From: a virus
Lineage: Duplodnaviria > Heunggongvirae > Uroviricota > Caudoviricetes
DNA length: 38,978 bases
Direction: 5' to 3' (one strand)
Virus record (IMG/VR): IMGVR_UViG_2713896784_000029
The notes beneath the pieces are model-generated. The model was given only the letters and a program-made list of their open reading frames with translations. It was not told the DNA's origin and searched no databases. The translations under genes and the position numbers were made by a program. Every line of letters begins with the position of its first letter. Positions within the stretch are counted from its first letter, which is position 1. This document shows positions 30,183-38,978 of this stretch, piece after piece.

Positions 30183-31264
30183 TGCCTTATCAGCCCTTAC
30201 CACTGGCGCAACTGATCACACAGACACAACAGGATATCAGCCAGCGCCTGCCCGGTTCGCAGCCGGGCGTGAATGAAACCACCCTGAATGCCATTGCGTA
30301 TGCACTGGCGGGTCTGTCAGCACAGGAGCATGAACATCTGGCCTGGATCTCCCGGCAGATAATTCCGACAGAAGCTGATGAAGCCGAACTCCTGAAACAC
30401 TGCGCATTCTGGGGTGTCATCCGTAAACCGGCTTCCCGCGCTGACGGACCGGTACAACTGATGCTGACCACGGATGCAGGGATCACGGAAGGCGTACTCC
30501 TTCAGCGAAGCGATGGGGTTGTGTACCGCATCACCGGCTCTGCGACCGGAAAAGCCGGAACACTGAATGTTAATGTGGAGGCGGAAAGTGCGGGGCGCGC
30601 TGGAAATACCCCGACCGGAACCCGCCTGTCCTTTATCACGCCACAGGCGGGCATCAACCAGACAGCCACGGTCACCGGCACGGGACTCACCGGTGGTGCG
30701 GATGTGGAAACGGTGCCGGAGTTGCTGTCCAGGCTGGTATTCCGGGTACAGAACCCGCCATCAGGGGGAACACAGTATGATTTTGAACGCTGGGCACGGG
30801 AAGTACCGGGCGTGACGCGGGCATGGTGTAAGCCTGAATGGCCTGAGGCGGGTAGTGTTGGTGTGACTTTTGTTCAGGATAATAACCCTGACATTTTCCC
30901 CGGAGAAGGTGATGTGAAGCGGGTGGCGGATTATATCCGCAGTCATGATGATCCGGCGACGGGCCAGCCCGTTGGTCAGCCACTTGGGCCGACAATCAGC
31001 GTGTTTAAGCTGACCAATAAGCCGGTGGCGTTTGAGATCAGGATTGTACCCAAAACGCCGGAAAATCAGGCTGCCGTAAAACAGGCATTAACAGACCTGC
31101 TTTATAACGAATCGCGGCCGGGTGGACTTGTATTGCCTTCATCATTCTGGCGGGCTGTTGCAGGGGTGAAAGGACTGGAGGATTTTGAAGTTCGCAGCCC
31201 GCTGAAGTCCGTGATGGCCGGAGATACAGAGTTGCTGACCGTGGGGGAAATCACATGGCTGTAA
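30179..31264 (+). CDS. baseplate J-like protein (Mu gp47 position)
   Basis: 361 aa, coupled start; size and position typical of baseplate wedge J-family protein. Confidence 0.7.
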   Translation: MMPYQPLPLAQLITQTQQDISQRLPGSQPGVNETTLNAIAYALAGLSAQEHEHLAWISRQIIPTEADEAELLKHCAFWGVIRKPASRADGPVQLMLTTDAGITEGVLLQRSDGVVYRITGSATGKAGTLNVNVEAESAGRAGNTPTGTRLSFITPQAGINQTATVTGTGLTGGADVETVPELLSRLVFRVQNPPSGGTQYDFERWAREVPGVTRAWCKPEWPEAGSVGVTFVQDNNPDIFPGEGDVKRVADYIRSHDDPATGQPVGQPLGPTISVFKLTNKPVAFEIRIVPKTPENQAAVKQALTDLLYNESRPGGLVLPSSFWRAVAGVKGLEDFEVRSPLKSVMAGDTELLTVGEITWL

Positions 31265-31815
31265 CCCTGACCCCGCATCAGCGCGCCCTGTTGCAGTTGC
31301 TGCCTGACGGGCTGGCATGGGATAAGCGGCCGTCATCCGTTCTTGCGGCTTTGTGCCTGGGCCTCAGTCATTCCACGGAGCGTGTTTCCTGGACCGGTAA
31401 CCAGATGCTGGCAGAACGTTTTCCTGATTCATCCCGTCTGCTGCTGGAAGACTGGGAGCGTTATCTGGGGTTACCGGAATGTGATATGACCGGCGCAACC
31501 ATTCAGGAGCGTCAGCGTTATGCCGGGAATAAATACCGGATGAAACCCTCTCTTAACCGTGAATTTTATATCCGGTTTGCGGCAGAGTTTGGTTATGAAA
31601 TAGATATTCAGCCATCACCGGATTCACAGTGGGTCAGTATTGTCACGATTAACAGTGAAACCGGCTACCGGAATATGAATGTGCTGGATGATATTCTCAC
31701 GCCGCTGCGTATTTATGAAGGCGGTGCGCTGGAATGTATTCTGAACCGTTATAAGCCTGCATGGCAGACGTTTATTTACGTATATGCAAACAGTCACGAA
31801 GAGGAGAATATTTAA
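31255..31815 (+). CDS. tail protein (Mu gp48 position)
   Basis: 186 aa between baseplate J-like gene and tail fibre gene. Confidence 0.6.
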   Translation: MAVTLTPHQRALLQLLPDGLAWDKRPSSVLAALCLGLSHSTERVSWTGNQMLAERFPDSSRLLLEDWERYLGLPECDMTGATIQERQRYAGNKYRMKPSLNREFYIRFAAEFGYEIDIQPSPDSQWVSIVTINSETGYRNMNVLDDILTPLRIYEGGALECILNRYKPAWQTFIYVYANSHEEENI

Positions 31816-32726
31816 TGTTCCATGTTGATAATAATTCCGGCGTGGCGAATATGCCTGCGCTGGCACCGGCGCAGAGTAATACCACCACCTGGTTTACCGA
31901 AGGTGACGGACAAAAAGGTATCAGCTGGATTGGTCAGGACTGGCTGAATATTCTCCAGGCCGAACTGCTGAATATTCTGGCTGAAGCCAGTATTCAGCCG
32001 GATAAGGCGCAGTTAAACCAGCTTACGCTGTCCATTAAAGCCATTATCGCTGCGAATGCCTTTTCCCGGAAAAACAACCTGAAAGAAATTGCTGATGCCG
32101 GTGCGGAAGCCCAGCGTCTTGCCCGTGGTTATCTTGGTCTTGGGGCGCTTGCCACAAAAAACAGTCTTGGTCCCGGTGACGTTAATGCTCTGGCGAAGGA
32201 TCAGAACCTTGCCGACCTGGAGAATGCGGGAACCGCCCGTAATAATCTGGATGTTTACAGCAAAAGCGAAGGTGATAACCGTTACCTGCGCAGGGAGCAG
32301 AACGGCGCAGACATTCCGGATAAAGGCGCTTTTATCGATAACGTTGGTTTACGGGAAACGGTAAATAAGGCTGCTGATGCCCTGCCATCGGGTGGAACCG
32401 CCGTGGCAGCAAACAGACTCGCCACCCCAAGAAATATTAATGGTGTTCCTTTTGACGGAACGCTGGATATCAACATCACGTCAGGAATGACGCAGTCAAC
32501 CGCAGATGGCCGGTATGTACAGAATGTTCAGCTTGGAGCACAGAGCTATCATTCACCCGGAGGCAATGAAATGTCATGGAATTACAGCGCACCTTCCGGT
32601 TGTATGCTTTCCGGAATTAACGTGCAGGAAACCGGCTCCCGGTCTGCGGACAATATCGGTGGGGTCTATTATCGCCCGGTTCAGATTTATATTAATAATG
32701 CCTGGAGAACGGTAAGTTCAGTGTAA
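31815..32726 (+). CDS. tail fibre protein; constant N-terminal part plus variable C-terminal part inside invertible segment
   Basis: ATG 31815 after GAGGAGAA RBS; from about nt 32346 the 3' portion is repeated in inverted orientation at 33560-33720. Confidence 0.75.
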   Translation: MFHVDNNSGVANMPALAPAQSNTTTWFTEGDGQKGISWIGQDWLNILQAELLNILAEASIQPDKAQLNQLTLSIKAIIAANAFSRKNNLKEIADAGAEAQRLARGYLGLGALATKNSLGPGDVNALAKDQNLADLENAGTARNNLDVYSKSEGDNRYLRREQNGADIPDKGAFIDNVGLRETVNKAADALPSGGTAVAANRLATPRNINGVPFDGTLDINITSGMTQSTADGRYVQNVQLGAQSYHSPGGNEMSWNYSAPSGCMLSGINVQETGSRSADNIGGVYYRPVQIYINNAWRTVSSV

Positions 32727-32736
32727 ACCACAGAAA

Positions 32737-32755
32737 AGGGTGCTGAATGCACCCT
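32737..32755. terminator. hairpin between convergent fibre and fibre-assembly genes
   Basis: AGGGTGC-TGAAT-GCACCCT stem-loop in the 34-bp gap between the two convergent stop codons. Confidence 0.4.
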
Positions 32756-32760
32756 CTGAA

Positions 32761-33282
32761 TTATTCCGGTTTTTCCGGCCAGGGAATCGCCTGGTAATGC
32801 CCCTCACTGGCAATATCATTAAAGTGCATTTCTTTAAGCTGTCGGATATACGCCATCCAGCGCGTCAGCTGTAATTTATTTTCATCGCTAATCATGTCCA
32901 GTTTTAATTCCGTTTTCCAGTCATCCACAGTTTCGTTGGCTTCCTGGAGCAGCGATGAGCGGCGCTTTTCAGCAACCGTCTTCCAGTTTACCGGCACCTT
33001 TGATATCAGGCCATCAGAAAACTGCCAGTTACCGTCAATATTCACACCTTCCGGCAGTTCGTCCACTTCAACAACAGTAAAACCTGCCGGATATAAAGCA
33101 GAGACATCTTCAGCAACAGAGCAGATAATACCCGTTACAGGCGAAATACAGAGTTTGTATTTCTTTGTGAAAAGCGGGATAGATTCATAAAAATCCCTTC
33201 CGTCCTCACTCTGGAAATACTGAACATCCTCACCATAGGGTTTGTGTTCCGGGTAATATCGTTTTACGTTAATAAGCTCCAT
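32761..33282 (-). CDS. tail fibre assembly protein (U'-like chaperone)
   Basis: Minus-strand ORF; start at ATG 33282 (MELINVKRYY) with AAGGTGA RBS; C-terminal W/R-rich region typical of fibre assembly chaperones. Confidence 0.7.
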   Translation of the reverse strand: MELINVKRYYPEHKPYGEDVQYFQSEDGRDFYESIPLFTKKYKLCISPVTGIICSVAEDVSALYPAGFTVVEVDELPEGVNIDGNWQFSDGLISKVPVNWKTVAEKRRSSLLQEANETVDDWKTELKLDMISDENKLQLTRWMAYIRQLKEMHFNDIASEGHYQAIPWPEKPE

Positions 33283-33361
33283 TATTTCACCTTGTTTTTG
33301 TTGAAAAGACAAAATCATCATATATTTATTCAGATAATCTGTTTTTTGAACTACTGCACTT

Positions 33362-33720
33362 TTATGCGCTGGAAGCTGTTTTCCACGAACCATCTATCAG
33401 AAACTGAACAGGTCGATAATATGCGGTTACCGTTGCATTACCATCACCAGCGACATCAAGCCCTGTAAGTACGCATCCGTCAGGAACCTCAAAAATATTA
33501 TATTGCATTCCAATCGTTGACCTTGAACCTCTTCGAATGCTTTGAACATAACGTGAGTCAGCCACAGACTGCGTCATCCCCGATGTAATATTTATATCCT
33601 GCGTTCCGTCAAATGGGACACCATTAATATTTCTTGGAGTGGCGAGTTTATTCGCTGCAACAGCCGCTCCGTTCGATGGCAGGGCATTCGCGGCCCTGTT
33701 TACAGTATCCCGTAAACCGA
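33362..33720 (-). other. alternative tail-fibre C-terminal coding segment (Sv'-like) without own start
   Basis: Minus-strand frame open to the segment border; translation ...GLRDTVNRAANALPSNGAAVAANKLATPRNINGVPFDGTQDINITSGMTQSVADSRYVQ... parallels the plus-strand fibre. Would fuse to the fibre constant part only after inversion. Confidence 0.6.
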
Positions 33721-33787
33721 AGGTTTCAGGGATGCCGTATATCTGCTTTAAAAGGCCTTTCCACCTCTTTTTAAGGAAGGTAAATAC

Positions 33788-34348
33788 ATGCTGATTGGCT
33801 ATATACGCGTATCAACAAATGACCAGAACACAGGTTTACAAAGAAATGCGCTGGAATGTGCAGGATGTGAGCAGATTTTTGAAGATAAAATGAGTGGTAA
33901 AACGACACAGCGGCCGGGACTGAAGCGGGCACTGAAGAAACTAAAACCCGGTGACACACTGATGGTCTGGAAACTGGACAGGCTGGGGCGCAGTATGCGC
34001 CACCTTGTTGCGCTGACAGATGAATTACAGCAACAGGGGATAAATTTTCGTAGTCTTACTGACAACATTGATACGTCAACCCCCATGGGGCGCTTCTTTT
34101 TTCACATAATGGGTGCGCTGGCAGAAATGGAGCGTGAATTAATTGTCGAACGGACACGGGCTGGTCTTGCAGCTGCCCGTGAAAGGGGACGAACCGGCGG
34201 CAGACCCCGTCGTCTCACGCAGGAACAATACGAGCAGGTCGGGCGTTTACTGGCCGGGGGTGTCAGTCGAAGACAGGTGGCACTTATTTTTGATATCGGC
34301 CTTTCAACCCTTTATCGTTATTATCCTGCGAGCGTTTCGGAAAAATAA
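33788..34348 (+). CDS. gin: serine recombinase, Gin/Hin/Pin/Cin-family DNA invertase
   Basis: 186 aa; MLIGYIRVSTNDQNTGLQRNAL... with catalytic Ser in RVST and C-terminal HTH (QVALIFDIGLSTLYRY); very close to Mu Gin as recalled. Confidence 0.9.
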   Translation: MLIGYIRVSTNDQNTGLQRNALECAGCEQIFEDKMSGKTTQRPGLKRALKKLKPGDTLMVWKLDRLGRSMRHLVALTDELQQQGINFRSLTDNIDTSTPMGRFFFHIMGALAEMERELIVERTRAGLAAARERGRTGGRPRRLTQEQYEQVGRLLAGGVSRRQVALIFDIGLSTLYRYYPASVSEK

Positions 34349-34447
34349 GACGCTCTCTTTGTTGGGCCTTTACTGAATTAACGCAAAATGGCGTTTATCG
34401 GTCTGTGGATATGATAATTCAGTTTATTCAGGAACAGGCTGATTATT

Positions 34448-36487
34448 ATGACGTCCAAATGGGTTCAACTATCATCAATGCCCGGAAACTTTACTGTTAA
34501 AGTTTCCGGTGGTACAGCGGCATTTCTTGAGGCTCCCTTTCCTCCGGCCGAAACAAAAGGAGGAATGACATTTGCTGACTGTCTCATCAGTTTTAATACA
34601 CGGGATTGCCTGTGGGTAAGGCCAGTATCCGGTGATCCGAGTGTGGAAATTACCGGAGCGGGTATTGGTGCGGTCATTCCGTTAAGTGCTGATGTTGCCG
34701 GTACTGCTGAACCGTCAGACTGGGATAATGCTGAAACACATACCCGTCCGTCAGGAAATGAAACTGCTTCCAGCTCCCCTTCCTGGTATTACGTGGTGGT
34801 TCTTGCTGGTCAGTCAAACGGTATGGCTTACGGTGAAGGTCTGCCACTGCCGGAGACATATGACCGCCCCGAACCGCGTATTATGCAGTTAGCCCGTCGC
34901 AGTACAGTCACGCCGGGAGGTAAAGCCTGTCAGTATAACGACATCATTCTGGCCGACCACTGTCTGCATGATGTGCAGGATATGAGTGGAAAAAATCACC
35001 CGAAAGCGGATGTGGCTAAAGGGCAATATGGCACCGTGGGTCAGGGGCTTCACATTGCCAAAAAACTGCTGCCGTTTATTCCGGCAGATGCGGGGATTCT
35101 GCTGGTTCCCTGCTGCCGTGGTGGTTCTGCATTCACGGCGGGTGCTGACGGCACGTACAGTGACAGCACGGGTGCTTCAGAGGACTCAGCCCGCTGGGGT
35201 GTGGATAAGCCGCTGTATAAGGACTTAATCAGCCGGACAAAAGCGGCACTGGCGAAGAACCCGAAAAACCGCCTGCTTGCTGTGGTGTGGATGCAGGGCG
35301 AGTTTGATATTGATGCGAAGCCGACGGAGCATTCCGCGCTGTTTCTGGCGATGGTGGAAAAATTCCGCGCAGACCTGGCTGAACAGGCGGAACAGTGTAC
35401 CGGTGGCAGTGCTGCTGGCGTTCCGTGGATTTGTGGCGATACCACGTATTTCTGGAAACAGAAAAATGAACCGGCATACCAGGCAATCTATGGCGGCTAC
35501 AAAAACAAAACAGATAAAAACATTCATTTCGTTCCATTAATGACAGATGAAAATGACGCGAATGTACCCACCAACAATCCGGCAGAAGACCCGGATATTG
35601 AATCCATTGGTTATTACGGCTCAACGTGGCGTAACAGTGCCGCCACCTGGACATCTGCGGACCGGGCCAGCCATTTCAGTTCATGGGCACGTCGTGGGAT
35701 TATTTCCGACCGTCTGGCCACGGCAGTTCTGACTCATGCGGGGCGAACCACAGTAAAAGCCGATGTTCCATCTTCTGAAACTGAAGCACCAGTGCCGTCA
35801 CCTTCAGAAACTGAAGCAGTAACCACAACACTGCTGTCTTATCGTGTCAGTGAGTCAGAAGGAAATCTGAAAGCCCAGGGCTGGGAGCCGGCTGGCGGTA
35901 AAGCTGAAATTATCAGTGATGCAGGAGGCACAGGTGGTAAGGCAATGAAACTGACCAAGGAAACAGGTAAATCATCCTGGTATCTGGATCATGATGCCGG
36001 TACTGGTGCTGAACTGCTGAAAAATGGTGGTTTAATCAGTTGTCGTTTTAAAGTACCTGGCGACCTGGTGGCAAACCAGTATGTCATGGGGCTTTACTGG
36101 CCGGTTTCCTCTCTGCCGCAGGGTGTCACCCTGACAGGGGATGCAGGGAATAATCTGCTGGCATCGTTCTACATCCAGACAGACGCAAAAGACCTGAATG
36201 TGATGTACCACAATGCAAAAGTGGCAACAAATAACCAGAAACTGGGAACCTTTGGTGCATTTGATAATGAATGGCATACGCTGGCCTTCCGTTTTGCAGG
36301 AAATAACAGCCTTCAGGTTATTCCGGTTATTGATGGTCAGGATGGTGCCGCGTTTACCCTGACGCAGTCACCAGTAGGAACTTTCCCGGTGGACAAACTC
36401 CGCGTAACGGATATCACAAAAAATGCAACTTACCCGGTGCTGATTGACAGCATTGTGGTGGAAGTGAAAAAAGCGGTAACAGAATAA
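34448..36487 (+). CDS. cargo SASA/SGNH-type carbohydrate O-acetylesterase (prophage NanS-p-like) with C-terminal beta-rich domain
   Basis: 679 aa; VVVLAGQSNGMAYGEG (Ser motif) and VVWMQGEFD (WxQGE.D) match the sialate O-acetylesterase family signature; SETEA-SETEA linker then ~230-aa beta-rich domain; located between gin and com where Mu has no gene. Confidence 0.6.
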   Translation: MTSKWVQLSSMPGNFTVKVSGGTAAFLEAPFPPAETKGGMTFADCLISFNTRDCLWVRPVSGDPSVEITGAGIGAVIPLSADVAGTAEPSDWDNAETHTRPSGNETASSSPSWYYVVVLAGQSNGMAYGEGLPLPETYDRPEPRIMQLARRSTVTPGGKACQYNDIILADHCLHDVQDMSGKNHPKADVAKGQYGTVGQGLHIAKKLLPFIPADAGILLVPCCRGGSAFTAGADGTYSDSTGASEDSARWGVDKPLYKDLISRTKAALAKNPKNRLLAVVWMQGEFDIDAKPTEHSALFLAMVEKFRADLAEQAEQCTGGSAAGVPWICGDTTYFWKQKNEPAYQAIYGGYKNKTDKNIHFVPLMTDENDANVPTNNPAEDPDIESIGYYGSTWRNSAATWTSADRASHFSSWARRGIISDRLATAVLTHAGRTTVKADVPSSETEAPVPSPSETEAVTTTLLSYRVSESEGNLKAQGWEPAGGKAEIISDAGGTGGKAMKLTKETGKSSWYLDHDAGTGAELLKNGGLISCRFKVPGDLVANQYVMGLYWPVSSLPQGVTLTGDAGNNLLASFYIQTDAKDLNVMYHNAKVATNNQKLGTFGAFDNEWHTLAFRFAGNNSLQVIPVIDGQDGAAFTLTQSPVGTFPVDKLRVTDITKNATYPVLIDSIVVEVKKAVTE

Positions 36488-37640: not shown

Positions 37641-37670
37641 AAATCGAATCGATCGTTTTTGTCGATCGAT
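37641..37670. promoter_or_regulatory. mom-operon regulatory palindrome with two GATC (Dam) sites
   Basis: AATCGATCG-TTTTTGT-CGATCGATT inverted repeat about 45-75 bp upstream of com; GATC at 37651-37654 and 37664-37667. Confidence 0.5.
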
Positions 37671-37714
37671 TGCATGAGAAAGGCATCAACAACAAAGCAG
37701 GAGGTTATGCGGTC

Positions 37715-37915
37715 ATGTATCGAAACATACGGTGCCGACACTGCAATAAGCTACTGGCACGGGCCAGTTTCAGTTATCTGGAAGTAAAATGTCCGCGCTG
37801 TAAAACCCTCAATCAAATCACATCTCCGAGCGCCACAGAGCACCCCACATACACAAGGAAATCCTGTCGTGGGGAACAGAAAGCAAGTCACATCCCGAAT
37901 CATCAGCACGCCTGA
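37715..37915 (+). CDS. com: Com zinc-finger translational activator of mom
   Basis: [30 protein letters not shown] parallels Mu Com (IRCKNCNKLL...IRCPRCK); ORF overlaps the mom start as in Mu. Confidence 0.8.
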
Positions 37916-38606
37916 ACTTATTCGCTATAACGACAATATCGTTGGTTATGGCTCCCGTGAGTTGCGGGTTGAGACAATAAGTTGCTGGCTGGCCAGACTG
38001 GTCATCGTCAATAAACATTACAGCCACCGTTTCGTAAATAACTCCTACCTTCATCTGGGCATATTTTCAGAACGGGAACTTGTTGGCGTAATGCAATGGG
38101 GTTACGCCCTTAACCCAAACAGTGGTGCACGCGTCGTAACGGGTACGCAGAACCGAGAATATATGGAGCTTAACCGGCTATGGCTGCATGACTGTATGCC
38201 GAGAAACTCCGAATCAAGGGCAATCAGTTACGCGCTCAAGCTAATCAGGCAGCTTTATCCGCAGGTACAGTGGGTTCAGTCGTTTGCAGATGAGCGTTGT
38301 GGCTGTCTTGGTGTCGTGTATCAGGCAAGCAATTTTGATTATGTAGGCAGCCATGAATCAATATTCTATGAACTTGATGGCGAGTGGTATCACGAGATTT
38401 GCAGGAATGCCATTAAACGAGGCGGACAACGAGGTGAACATCTGAGGGCTAATATTGACAGAGCCAGTGTTCATAAGTTCCGACAGTTTCGTTACATCCG
38501 GTTTCTGAACAAGAGGGCCAGAAAACGCCTCAACACAAAGCTATTCAAAGTCCAGCCTTACCCAAAACCACAAACAGTTAAAACTGGTTTGAAAGAGAGT
38601 GAATGA
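37869..38606 (+). CDS. mom: Mom DNA-modification protein
   Basis: 245-aa ORF immediately downstream of and overlapping com, last gene before the right end, as in Mu; exact start uncertain. Confidence 0.7.
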
Positions 38607-38640: not shown

Positions 38641-38732
38641 AGCGCCGATTTAGTATCAAATAAGTTGCGTATCGGCGTTTTTCAGCGGTATCAAATGAAA
38701 TGCAAATCGGTATCAAAAAAATCGCCGCGCTA
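38641..38732. repeat. putative prophage right end (attR-like) repeats
   Basis: Three copies of (A/G)GTATCAAA at 38652, 38687, 38710; CGGCGTTTTTC resembles the CGTTTTTCG core of Mu end sites; flanking inverted GCGCCGATTT / AAATCGCCGCGC. Confidence 0.35.
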
Positions 38733-38777
38733 TACTTGCTGCAAGGTTATCCCGCCGTTGAAGCTGCATTAGGTTTT

Positions 38778-38978
38778 ATGCTTCCGGCACTCTTTATGAG
38801 TTTCCTGCTCGCCTCTTTTCAGCGCAAACAATCTCTTTGCGTTACCGCAGCGTTAGTTGGTGCCCTTGCAGGCGTAACGCTATTTTCTATTCCCGTCGCC
38901 ATTCTGGCAGGCATTGTCTGTGGCTGCCTCACTGCGTTAATCCAGGCATTCTGGCAAGGAGCGCCCGATGAGCTATGA
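38778..38978 (+). CDS. small integral membrane protein ORF at window edge (possibly host flank or truncated host gene)
   Basis: Two hydrophobic helices (LPALFMSFLLASF, ALVGALAGVTLFSIPVAILAGIVCGCLTALI); frame is open upstream to 38664; the next ORF starts at an overlapping ATG at the last bases of the window. Confidence 0.3.
   Translation: MLPALFMSFLLASFQRKQSLCVTAALVGALAGVTLFSIPVAILAGIVCGCLTALIQAFWQGAPDEL

Follow-up and report, generated by a model that had tools for sequence, protein, structure and literature searches.

A one-base insertion in a crossover site of the tail-fibre inversion switch of an Sp18-type Mu-like prophage of Escherichia coli

Tail-fibre inversion switches set the host range of bacteriophages, and in textbooks they serve as models of the chemistry of serine recombinases. 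Gin/Hin/Cin-type systems use 26-bp crossover sites (PMC4134206; PMC3798978), and a matching central dinucleotide is needed for religation after the 180-degree exchange (PMC4817059). In the window, by which we mean the whole stretch of 38,978 nucleotides analysed here (IMG/VR record IMGVR_UViG_2713896784_000029), an invertible segment is bordered by two such sites with different centres. A first-pass annotation of the window suggested that the segment may be locked or may use a shifted crossover. We ask what the difference between the two sites consists of, how it is distributed among related prophages, and whether this copy of the switch can still turn.

The window is a Mu-like prophage of the Sp18 type in E. 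coli. Prophages of 33 complete E. coli genomes have 100% identity to its switch region (31700-34400, 2.7 kb; 2701 bp), and the record of strain Sakai (O157:H7) labels its near-identical element, which carries a DNA-invertase, "prophage Sp18, Mu-like phage". Genes of the Mu gp48, Com and Mom families, recognised by Pfam, lie on either side of the switch region. An invertible host-specificity region has already been reported for the Mu-like prophage Sp18 (PMC2669165), and the inversion system itself is of a known kind, the Gin/Cin/Pin/Hin type, in a published prophage family. The features of the region are:

31255-31815: gene of the Mu gp48 family (Pfam)
31815-32726, plus strand: tail-fibre gene in its current assembly, constant part Sc plus variable cassette Sv (open reading frame list, translation)
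32332-32357, plus strand: left crossover site, 26 bp in a 12-2-12 plan, TTATCGATAACG-TT-GGTTTACGGGAA, centre at 32344-32345
32337-32521, plus strand: left arm of an inverted repeat, 185 nt, 77% complementary
32346-33718: invertible segment, about 1.37 kb between the crossover centres, as read from flipped genomes
32761-33285, minus strand: tail-fibre assembly (chaperone) gene, Pfam Caudo_TAP, E = 1.9e-18
33362-33718, minus strand: silent alternative C-terminal cassette Sv', from the translated in-silico recombinant
33543-33727, minus strand: right arm of the inverted repeat, 185 nt, 77% complementary
33707-33733, minus strand: right crossover site, 27 bp in a 12-3-12 plan, ATCCCTGAAACC-TTC-GGTTTACGGGAT
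33788-34348, plus strand: serine DNA invertase of the Gin/Cin/Pin family, 186 aa (Pfam Resolvase 1.4e-51 and HTH_7 1.7e-14)
33806-33877, plus strand: putative recombinational (Fis-binding) enhancer inside the 5' end of the invertase gene, placed by homology
37670-37915: Com (Pfam)
37869-38606: Mom (Pfam)

The right end of the prophage lies near 38735. An ORF at this edge (38700-38978) runs on into host sequence found in 5417 of 5426 E. coli genomes, and our guess, from its membrane-protein-like sequence, is that it is ygaZ/AzlC-like. None of the complete E. coli genomes searched has a prophage at the exact insertion site of the window, and the window and Sakai Sp18 occupy separate chromosomal insertion sites. 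Between the invertase and com/mom, a position at which Mu has a short gap only, there is a gene of 679 aa (34448-36487, plus strand) with a SASA (sialate O-acetylesterase-like) domain and DUF6645; it looks like a cargo gene and is shortened by truncation in some relatives (SMN197SH3, OkiPb01679). Two records of Stx-converting phages, LC727881.1 and LC727895.1, contain an inserted Mu-like phage whose switch region is 94% and whose invertase is 100% identical to those of the window; in each, a Mu-like element has transposed into a lambdoid Stx prophage.

The tail-fibre gene follows the Mu gp48-family gene. Its open frame begins at 31761, and from the ATG of the RefSeq homologues the Sc-Sv fibre has 303 aa; in identical relatives RefSeq names it 'tail fiber protein' (WP_000469162.1). 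The constant part Sc ends at the left site and is followed by the variable cassette Sv. The invertible segment holds Sv on the plus strand and, on the minus strand, one tail-fibre assembly gene and Sv', and the 185-nt inverted repeat is the common 5' part of these homologous cassettes, tipped by both crossover sites. Inversion in silico, in the register that keeps the inner half-site, joined Sc to Sv' in frame to give a fibre of 295 aa, and a protein of the same length, WP_032213164.1, is annotated in natural inverted isomers. The crossover thus falls within the fibre gene and joins alternative C-termini in frame to a constant N-terminus (303 vs 295 aa). One chaperone gene per cassette, as found in the fibre switches of Mu G, P1 C, e14 P and p15B Min, is not seen here: the Caudo_TAP gene is the sole chaperone gene of the segment and lies on the strand of Sv', no gene follows Sv, and only in the inverted orientation is the chaperone gene 3' of the fibre gene, directly downstream of Sc-Sv' in the inverted isomers.

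Some smaller observations belong to the same stretch. Sc-Sv, the fibre expressed in the orientation of most genomes, is without a downstream chaperone gene, and a GC-rich hairpin (GGGTGC..GCACCC, at about 32738-32757) separates the convergent stop codons of Sv and the TAP gene. A short ORF on the plus strand (33639-33794) runs antisense to Sv', across the right site to the start of the invertase. RefSeq lists it as hypothetical protein WP_071526725.1 in canonical relatives, while in FRIK2455 the extra base at the right site has it marked 'frameshifted'; it is probably no real gene.

The invertase has the make-up of a small serine recombinase (about 190 aa, a serine near residue 9-10, a C-terminal helix-turn-helix). 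It keeps the catalytic Ser9 motif YIRVSTNDQ (YxRVSTxxQ), and in a four-way alignment its identity to Mu Gin, P1 Cin and e14 Pin is 74, 70 and 72%, with 100+ invariant columns and all catalytic motifs conserved; tblastn gives 75.1% against Mu Gin. The same protein, WP_000904930.1, is the invertase in all loci compared, and its ORF, motifs and enhancer region are intact and do not vary between copies. The P1 record places the Cin enhancer at nt 19-90 of cin, and over their first 123 nt the four invertase genes can be aligned gap-free, with a mean column identity of 87%. From this homology we infer a Fis-binding enhancer within the invertase gene, 85-157 bp away from the centre of the right site; in systems of this type the enhancer typically lies about 100 bp from one of the sites. 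Dependence on Fis and negative supercoiling, and 2-nt staggered cleavage via 5'-phosphoserine intermediates, are assumed by analogy with the related systems.

The first-pass annotation placed gix/hix-like crossover sites at both borders of the segment. Both border sequences are present as quoted and at the correct coordinates, and the Mu gix half-site that the annotation gave agrees with NC_000929.1, in which both G-segment borders read TTATCCAAAACC-TC-GGTTTACAGGAA. We scanned the whole window, ungapped, with the 26-nt Mu gix. The left site came out on top at 21/26, a level at which about 3e-4 matches are expected in 2 x 39 kb, and the right site (plus strand ATCCCGTAAACC-GAA-GGTTTCAGGGAT, within 33700-33740) shared second place at 17/26. 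When GGTTTACAGGAA was sought with at most one mismatch, the left site was the only match in the window, and it lies at fibre-gene codons homologous to those of Mu (Mu ...FIQNLGLQETVN vs window ...FIDNVGLRETVN). The core pattern AAMCSNNGGTTT misses the left site, which ends TAACG, and was not used as evidence. P1 has CAATCCTAAACC-TT-GGTTTAAGAGAA at cixL and TTATCCAATACC-TT-GGTTTAAGAGAA at cixR, and e14 has CTCTCGAAAACC-TT-GGTTTGGGAGAA at the left and TTTTCATAAACG-TT-GGTTTGGGAGAA at the right pix site; the sites of the EC958 prophage also follow the 26-bp plan, with TC or TT centres (PMC4134206). With this alignment in hand, and with the junctions of inverted isomers falling exactly at these sites (below), the assignment of both window sites to the gix/cix/pix type is secure.

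At their centres the two sites disagree, the left having TT and the right TTC; with the inner halves aligned, the adjoining dinucleotide is TT at the left and TC at the right. The annotation described this as non-identical centres. The difference is real (12-2-12 vs 12-3-12), but it is better read as a right site with an inserted base. Because Sakai, 99.1145 and M7638 have 26-bp TT or TC versions of the right site, the right site of the window is a canonical 26-bp site plus one extra base, and the window is a mutant allele of a member system. Sakai, M7638 and FORC_044 have two 26-bp sites, whereas in the window the left site has 26 bp and the right site 27. The extra base is at 33719-33721, where in the alignment 33719 is the indel and 33720 a polymorphic position; on the other side, position 32345 is a T/C polymorphism among otherwise identical prophages. 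The +1 allele and the centre polymorphism appear to be undescribed so far.

Inverted isomers were sought in assembled genomes with a synthetic inverted version of the region as query, and this query found the segment flipped in 23 genomes. Junctions were read in 10 of the 23 (L001-L006 and L014-L017), and all 10 consist of an outer half, a 2-nt centre and the other arm. In the inverted isomer FORC_044 the left junction is TTATCGATAACG-TC-GGTTTACGGGAT and the right is ATCCCTGAAACC-TC-GGTTTACGGGAA; Z1323MEC0002 and 2014C-3050, also inverted, have FORC_044-like junctions with TT at both sites. Since the two outer halves show no relationship and the arms do not diverge before inner position 12, exchange took place within a 13-bp interval made up of the centre and GGTTTACGGGA, as expected for a serine invertase. 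Near-identical prophages with canonical alleles therefore occur in both orientations, the inverted isomer that the annotation raised has been found among them, and the canonical-allele system of the Sp18-type prophage does invert.

Among relatives in the orientation of the window and with 26-bp right sites, the centres (left/right) are TT/TT in Sakai, TC/TC in M7638 and TC/TT in 99.1145, and the sites of the family in IMG/VR nearly all have a TC centre and all follow the 12-2-12 plan. Strain 99.1145, of serotype O111:H8, is an example of mixed centres (left TC, right TT) in nature. Sister elements, namely L003 and L005 (Z869 and 2012C-4502) and the IMG/VR loci L021-L060, carry other outer right halves, TCCCTGAAAACC and TTCCTGAAAACC; their arms are identical for at least 26 nt on both sides, so that reading the first 24 nt of an arm does not reveal the orientation. 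Plasmids (NZ_CP024617.1, NZ_CP074995.1) carry a few matching sites.

How much else varies in this region was seen in an alignment of 3.3 kb from nine copies, in which the inverted ones were flipped back in silico. Eight of the nine are essentially identical, and apart from two probable homopolymer errors in 2014C-3050 their variable positions are:

32345: left centre, second base
33719: extra base of the right site
33720: right centre
34356: lineage marker, a SNP located 8 nt beyond the stop codon of the invertase

The ninth copy, ECP19-198, has 25 further differences, mostly in the constant part Sc. We considered the SNP at 34356 as a marker of orientation and rejected it, since its C allele is also found in window-orientation loci of IMG/VR. 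Three of the four differences fall on about five core positions out of 3300, which is not what random mutation would give, and this clustering points to recombinase-associated change at the crossover. A bolder version, which we regard as improbable, is that the core is a hot spot of recombinase-driven change and that TTC is a scar which locks the infectious orientation and has spread. Such a scar could, as a matter of speculation, stem from an aberrant exchange between a TT and a TC site, in which slipped pairing of the 2-nt overhangs (TT and GA) followed by fill-in would leave T-T-C. If this were true, a scarred allele locked in the infectious fibre orientation would have reached many insertion sites and serotypes.

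The distribution of the centres was determined by junction-specific megablast against 5426 complete E. coli genomes, with locally validated queries in which every 28-nt seed has to span the centre and an arm-specific base. Left and right centres were counted separately, which gives marginal counts, and both were read together in 15 loci. At the right junction with the Sv' arm, that is, in the orientation of the window, TTC was present in 33 best-match records (at least 36 when genomes with a second element are counted), TC in 109 and TT in 24, Sakai among them. The left junction with the Sv' arm, diagnostic of inversion, was found 11 times (7 exact TC, 2 TT, 2 imperfect matches to the TC variant, and no TTC). 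The Sv arm was found 58 times at the right junction, never with TTC, and at the left junction with about 103 TT, 83 TC and no TTC. Other indel alleles (T, TTT, TCC) were absent from both sites in all 5426 genomes. Crossover centres thus do not look generally indel-prone, and TTC looks like a single event. The combination TT/TTC is shared by the window and 32 other genomes, all 100% identical over the 2701 bp; a trio of genomes represented by FRIK2455 has TC/TTC, that is, the 27-bp right site of the window with a left centre of TC.

In at least 36 genomes, then, the TTC allele is present, and every copy is in the orientation of the window. The recombinant junctions that inversion of a TTC site would leave (outer-R-TTC-Sv and Sc-TTC-Sv') were found neither in the 5426 E. 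coli genomes nor in IMG/VR or the JGI metagenomes, nor does the pattern AACS-TTC-GGTTTACGGGAWAC occur in the latter two collections; as a positive control, IMG/VR yielded 45 loci with 2-nt centres. Canonical alleles are skewed in the same direction, with about 133 copies in the window orientation vs 11 inverted (about 12:1). At this base rate the probability of no inverted copy among about 36 with TTC is about 0.06, for genomes that are not independent of one another. Because the canonical alleles are strongly skewed as well, the lack of inverted TTC copies is weakly informative and no proof of locking.

Prophages of the TTC type lie beside many different host genes, so the allele is carried by an actively mobile phage rather than inherited at a single locus, and the many loci fit active transposition or lysogenisation. 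We rejected vertical inheritance at one locus as the cause of the uniform orientation, since the insertion sites are many and none of the complete genomes searched shares that of the window. The same uniformity could also stem, without any locking, from recent lysogenisation by virions of one infectious orientation; where so many insertions are recent, infection with Sc-Sv virions may have reset the orientation. Locking is compatible with the population data but is not established by them.

What the extra base should do can be set out from the mechanism of the family. The invertase, with Fis at the enhancer in its own gene, would pair two inverted 26-bp sites; both would be cut with 2-nt staggers at the central dinucleotide, and the halves would rotate through 180 degrees and religate. 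The flip of the 1.37-kb segment, which is the host-range switch of the Sp18-type Mu-like prophage, gives the constant N-terminus of the fibre one of two in-frame continuations, Sv or else Sv' with the chaperone gene behind it. In the window the right core has gained one base and reads AAACC-TTC-GGTTT instead of AAACC-TT/TC-GGTTT, and no one register now yields two well-spaced half-sites together with a centre equal to that of the left site. Were the inner half kept, the centre would be TC against the left TT and the outer half would be displaced by one; if the outer half were kept, the centre would be TT, the inner half would be displaced, and the extra C would shift the frame of the fibre gene. 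Both the cleavage and religation chemistry and the impairment of this copy are what we infer from these considerations.

To put a figure on the displaced half-sites, we scored them with a position-weight model built from 23 natural half-sites. In either 26-bp register the 27-bp site has one half-site at 0.8 bits, while 22 of the 23 natural half-sites score 8-17.5 bits; the exception is the outer half of the EC958 Phi2 3' site, at -3.4 bits. The EC958 Phi2 segment is reported to invert (PMC4134206), which shows that a poor outer half is tolerated and counts against locking. The two registers also differ in their products: inversion in the outer-half register (A, centre TT) brings the extra C into the fibre gene and truncates it at 200 aa, whereas the inner-half register (B) keeps the frame and gives the natural 295-aa protein, and pairs TT with TC. 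For Hin, a single base change in the hix core blocks ligation in the inverted orientation (PMC4817059). We found no measurement, in the accessible literature, of the effect of a 1-bp insertion between hix or gix half-sites. Taking this together, we think it rather probable that inversion at the right site is strongly impaired or locked and that the prophage is fixed in the Sc-Sv orientation.

Other readings have to be weighed against this one. That the extra base is an error of sequencing or assembly, in a site that is truly of the canonical 26-bp Sakai type, might be thought of because it is a one-base indel adjoining a short T run and because the relative 2014C-3050 has two probable homopolymer errors elsewhere in the region. 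The identical 2701 bp with the extra base, however, recur in 33 complete genomes from varied laboratories, serotypes and platforms, and the base is also present in three FRIK genomes, while T, TTT and TCC variants are lacking at either site in the 5426 genomes; with 36 independent assemblies carrying the base, an artefact is effectively excluded. We also consider it quite unlikely that the system is idle across the whole prophage lineage, for example with an invertase that is barely expressed, so that the inverted copies are old and the added base is neutral. The strong orientation bias of the canonical alleles would suit such a lineage, as would the C at 34356 in 8 of 8 inverted isomers that were read and have the Sv' arm of the window, which fits shared ancestry. 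Against it, inverted isomers exist with TC/TC and with TT/TT, and copies in the window orientation have the C allele too, so that more than one inversion event is needed; the intact invertase ORF, catalytic motifs and enhancer region, identical across copies, also speak against idleness, and a clustering of variation at the crossover centres would hardly be expected unless the recombinase had acted.

A more serious competitor, although one that we still hold to be doubtful, is that the 27-bp site works, with slow inversion through the inner-half register and with centres that drift by localized conversion. The recombinase dimer would then anchor on GGTTTACGGGAT, cut at the adjoining TC and tolerate a degenerate, shifted outer half, and the left TT would give a T.G mispair that is occasionally ligated and is resolved by repair or replication. 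The in-frame 295-aa Sc-Sv' product of that register speaks for this, as does the natural inversion of EC958 Phi2 3' in spite of its very poor outer half. In FRIK2455, whose sites differ from those of the window in the left centre and nowhere else, left TC and right TTC are matched in the inner-half register, and this left TC, which equals what the right site has in the inner register, could have been left behind by exchange and conversion at a 27-bp site. That variation in the 3.3-kb alignment is nearly all at the centres (32345, 33719, 33720) likewise suggests recombinase-associated change, and conversion by Cin at mismatched cix centres was reportedly described by Iida and Hiestand-Nauer in 1986/1987. 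The product that slow inversion predicts, AAACC-TTC-GGTTTACGGGAA (or -TTT-), is nevertheless absent from the 5426 E. coli genomes, IMG/VR and the JGI metagenomes; the shift changes core-proximal AAACC positions that are invariant in the 23 natural half-sites; and the block to recombinant ligation caused by a core mismatch in Hin (PMC4817059) would apply here as well. We accordingly keep to an impaired or locked right site as the reading to be preferred.

A natural 1-bp core insertion offers a ready test of how strict these recombinases are in vivo about spacing and core identity, and the TTC allele can serve as a marker for STEC prophages of the Sp18 type in which host-range switching may have been lost. 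In practice the consequences are modest, and both the 27-bp allele and the centre polymorphism are a niche matter.

Compared with known systems, the window is closest to Sakai Sp18, which is in essence the same element: over the 2.7-kb switch region the two differ only at the centre of the right site, a site that in Sakai has 26 bp with a TT that matches the left TT and in the window has TTC. The Mu G-segment shares the gene order (gp48-like gene, S-type fibre, invertase, com, mom), an invertase about 75% identical, and a gix to which the left site is matched at homologous fibre codons, in 11 of 12 positions for the inner half and 21 of 26 overall. It is unlike the window in being 3 kb long with two cassettes and two chaperones (S/U and S'/U'), where the segment here has 1.37 kb, two short cassettes and one chaperone, and in having identical 26-mers with TC as its two sites, where the window has unlike outer halves, a TT centre at the left and a right site of 27 bp. 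Mu is also without the DUF6645/SASA-esterase gene of 679 aa that the window has between invertase and com/mom. P1 Cin/cix and e14 Pin/pix resemble the window in their 26-bp sites of the same consensus, with the TT centre of its left site, and in invertases that are 70-72% identical, an enhancer within the invertase gene being annotated for cin; they differ in having other fibre cassettes and sites that are all 12-2-12, and the e14 P-segment is compact and has two chaperone genes. By analogy with the laboratory work on Cin, the centre polymorphism suggests that a Cin-like centre "conversion" may also be at work in wild populations. Mutants of the hix core (e.g. pRJ862) provide the nearest functional parallel, since differing centres are not ligatable in the recombinant orientation (PMC4817059). 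Those hix mutants, and the quasi-sites used with Cin, are laboratory substitutions within a 26-bp frame, whereas the allele of the window is a natural one that combines a difference of centre with a 1-bp change of spacing and circulates in wild STEC prophages.
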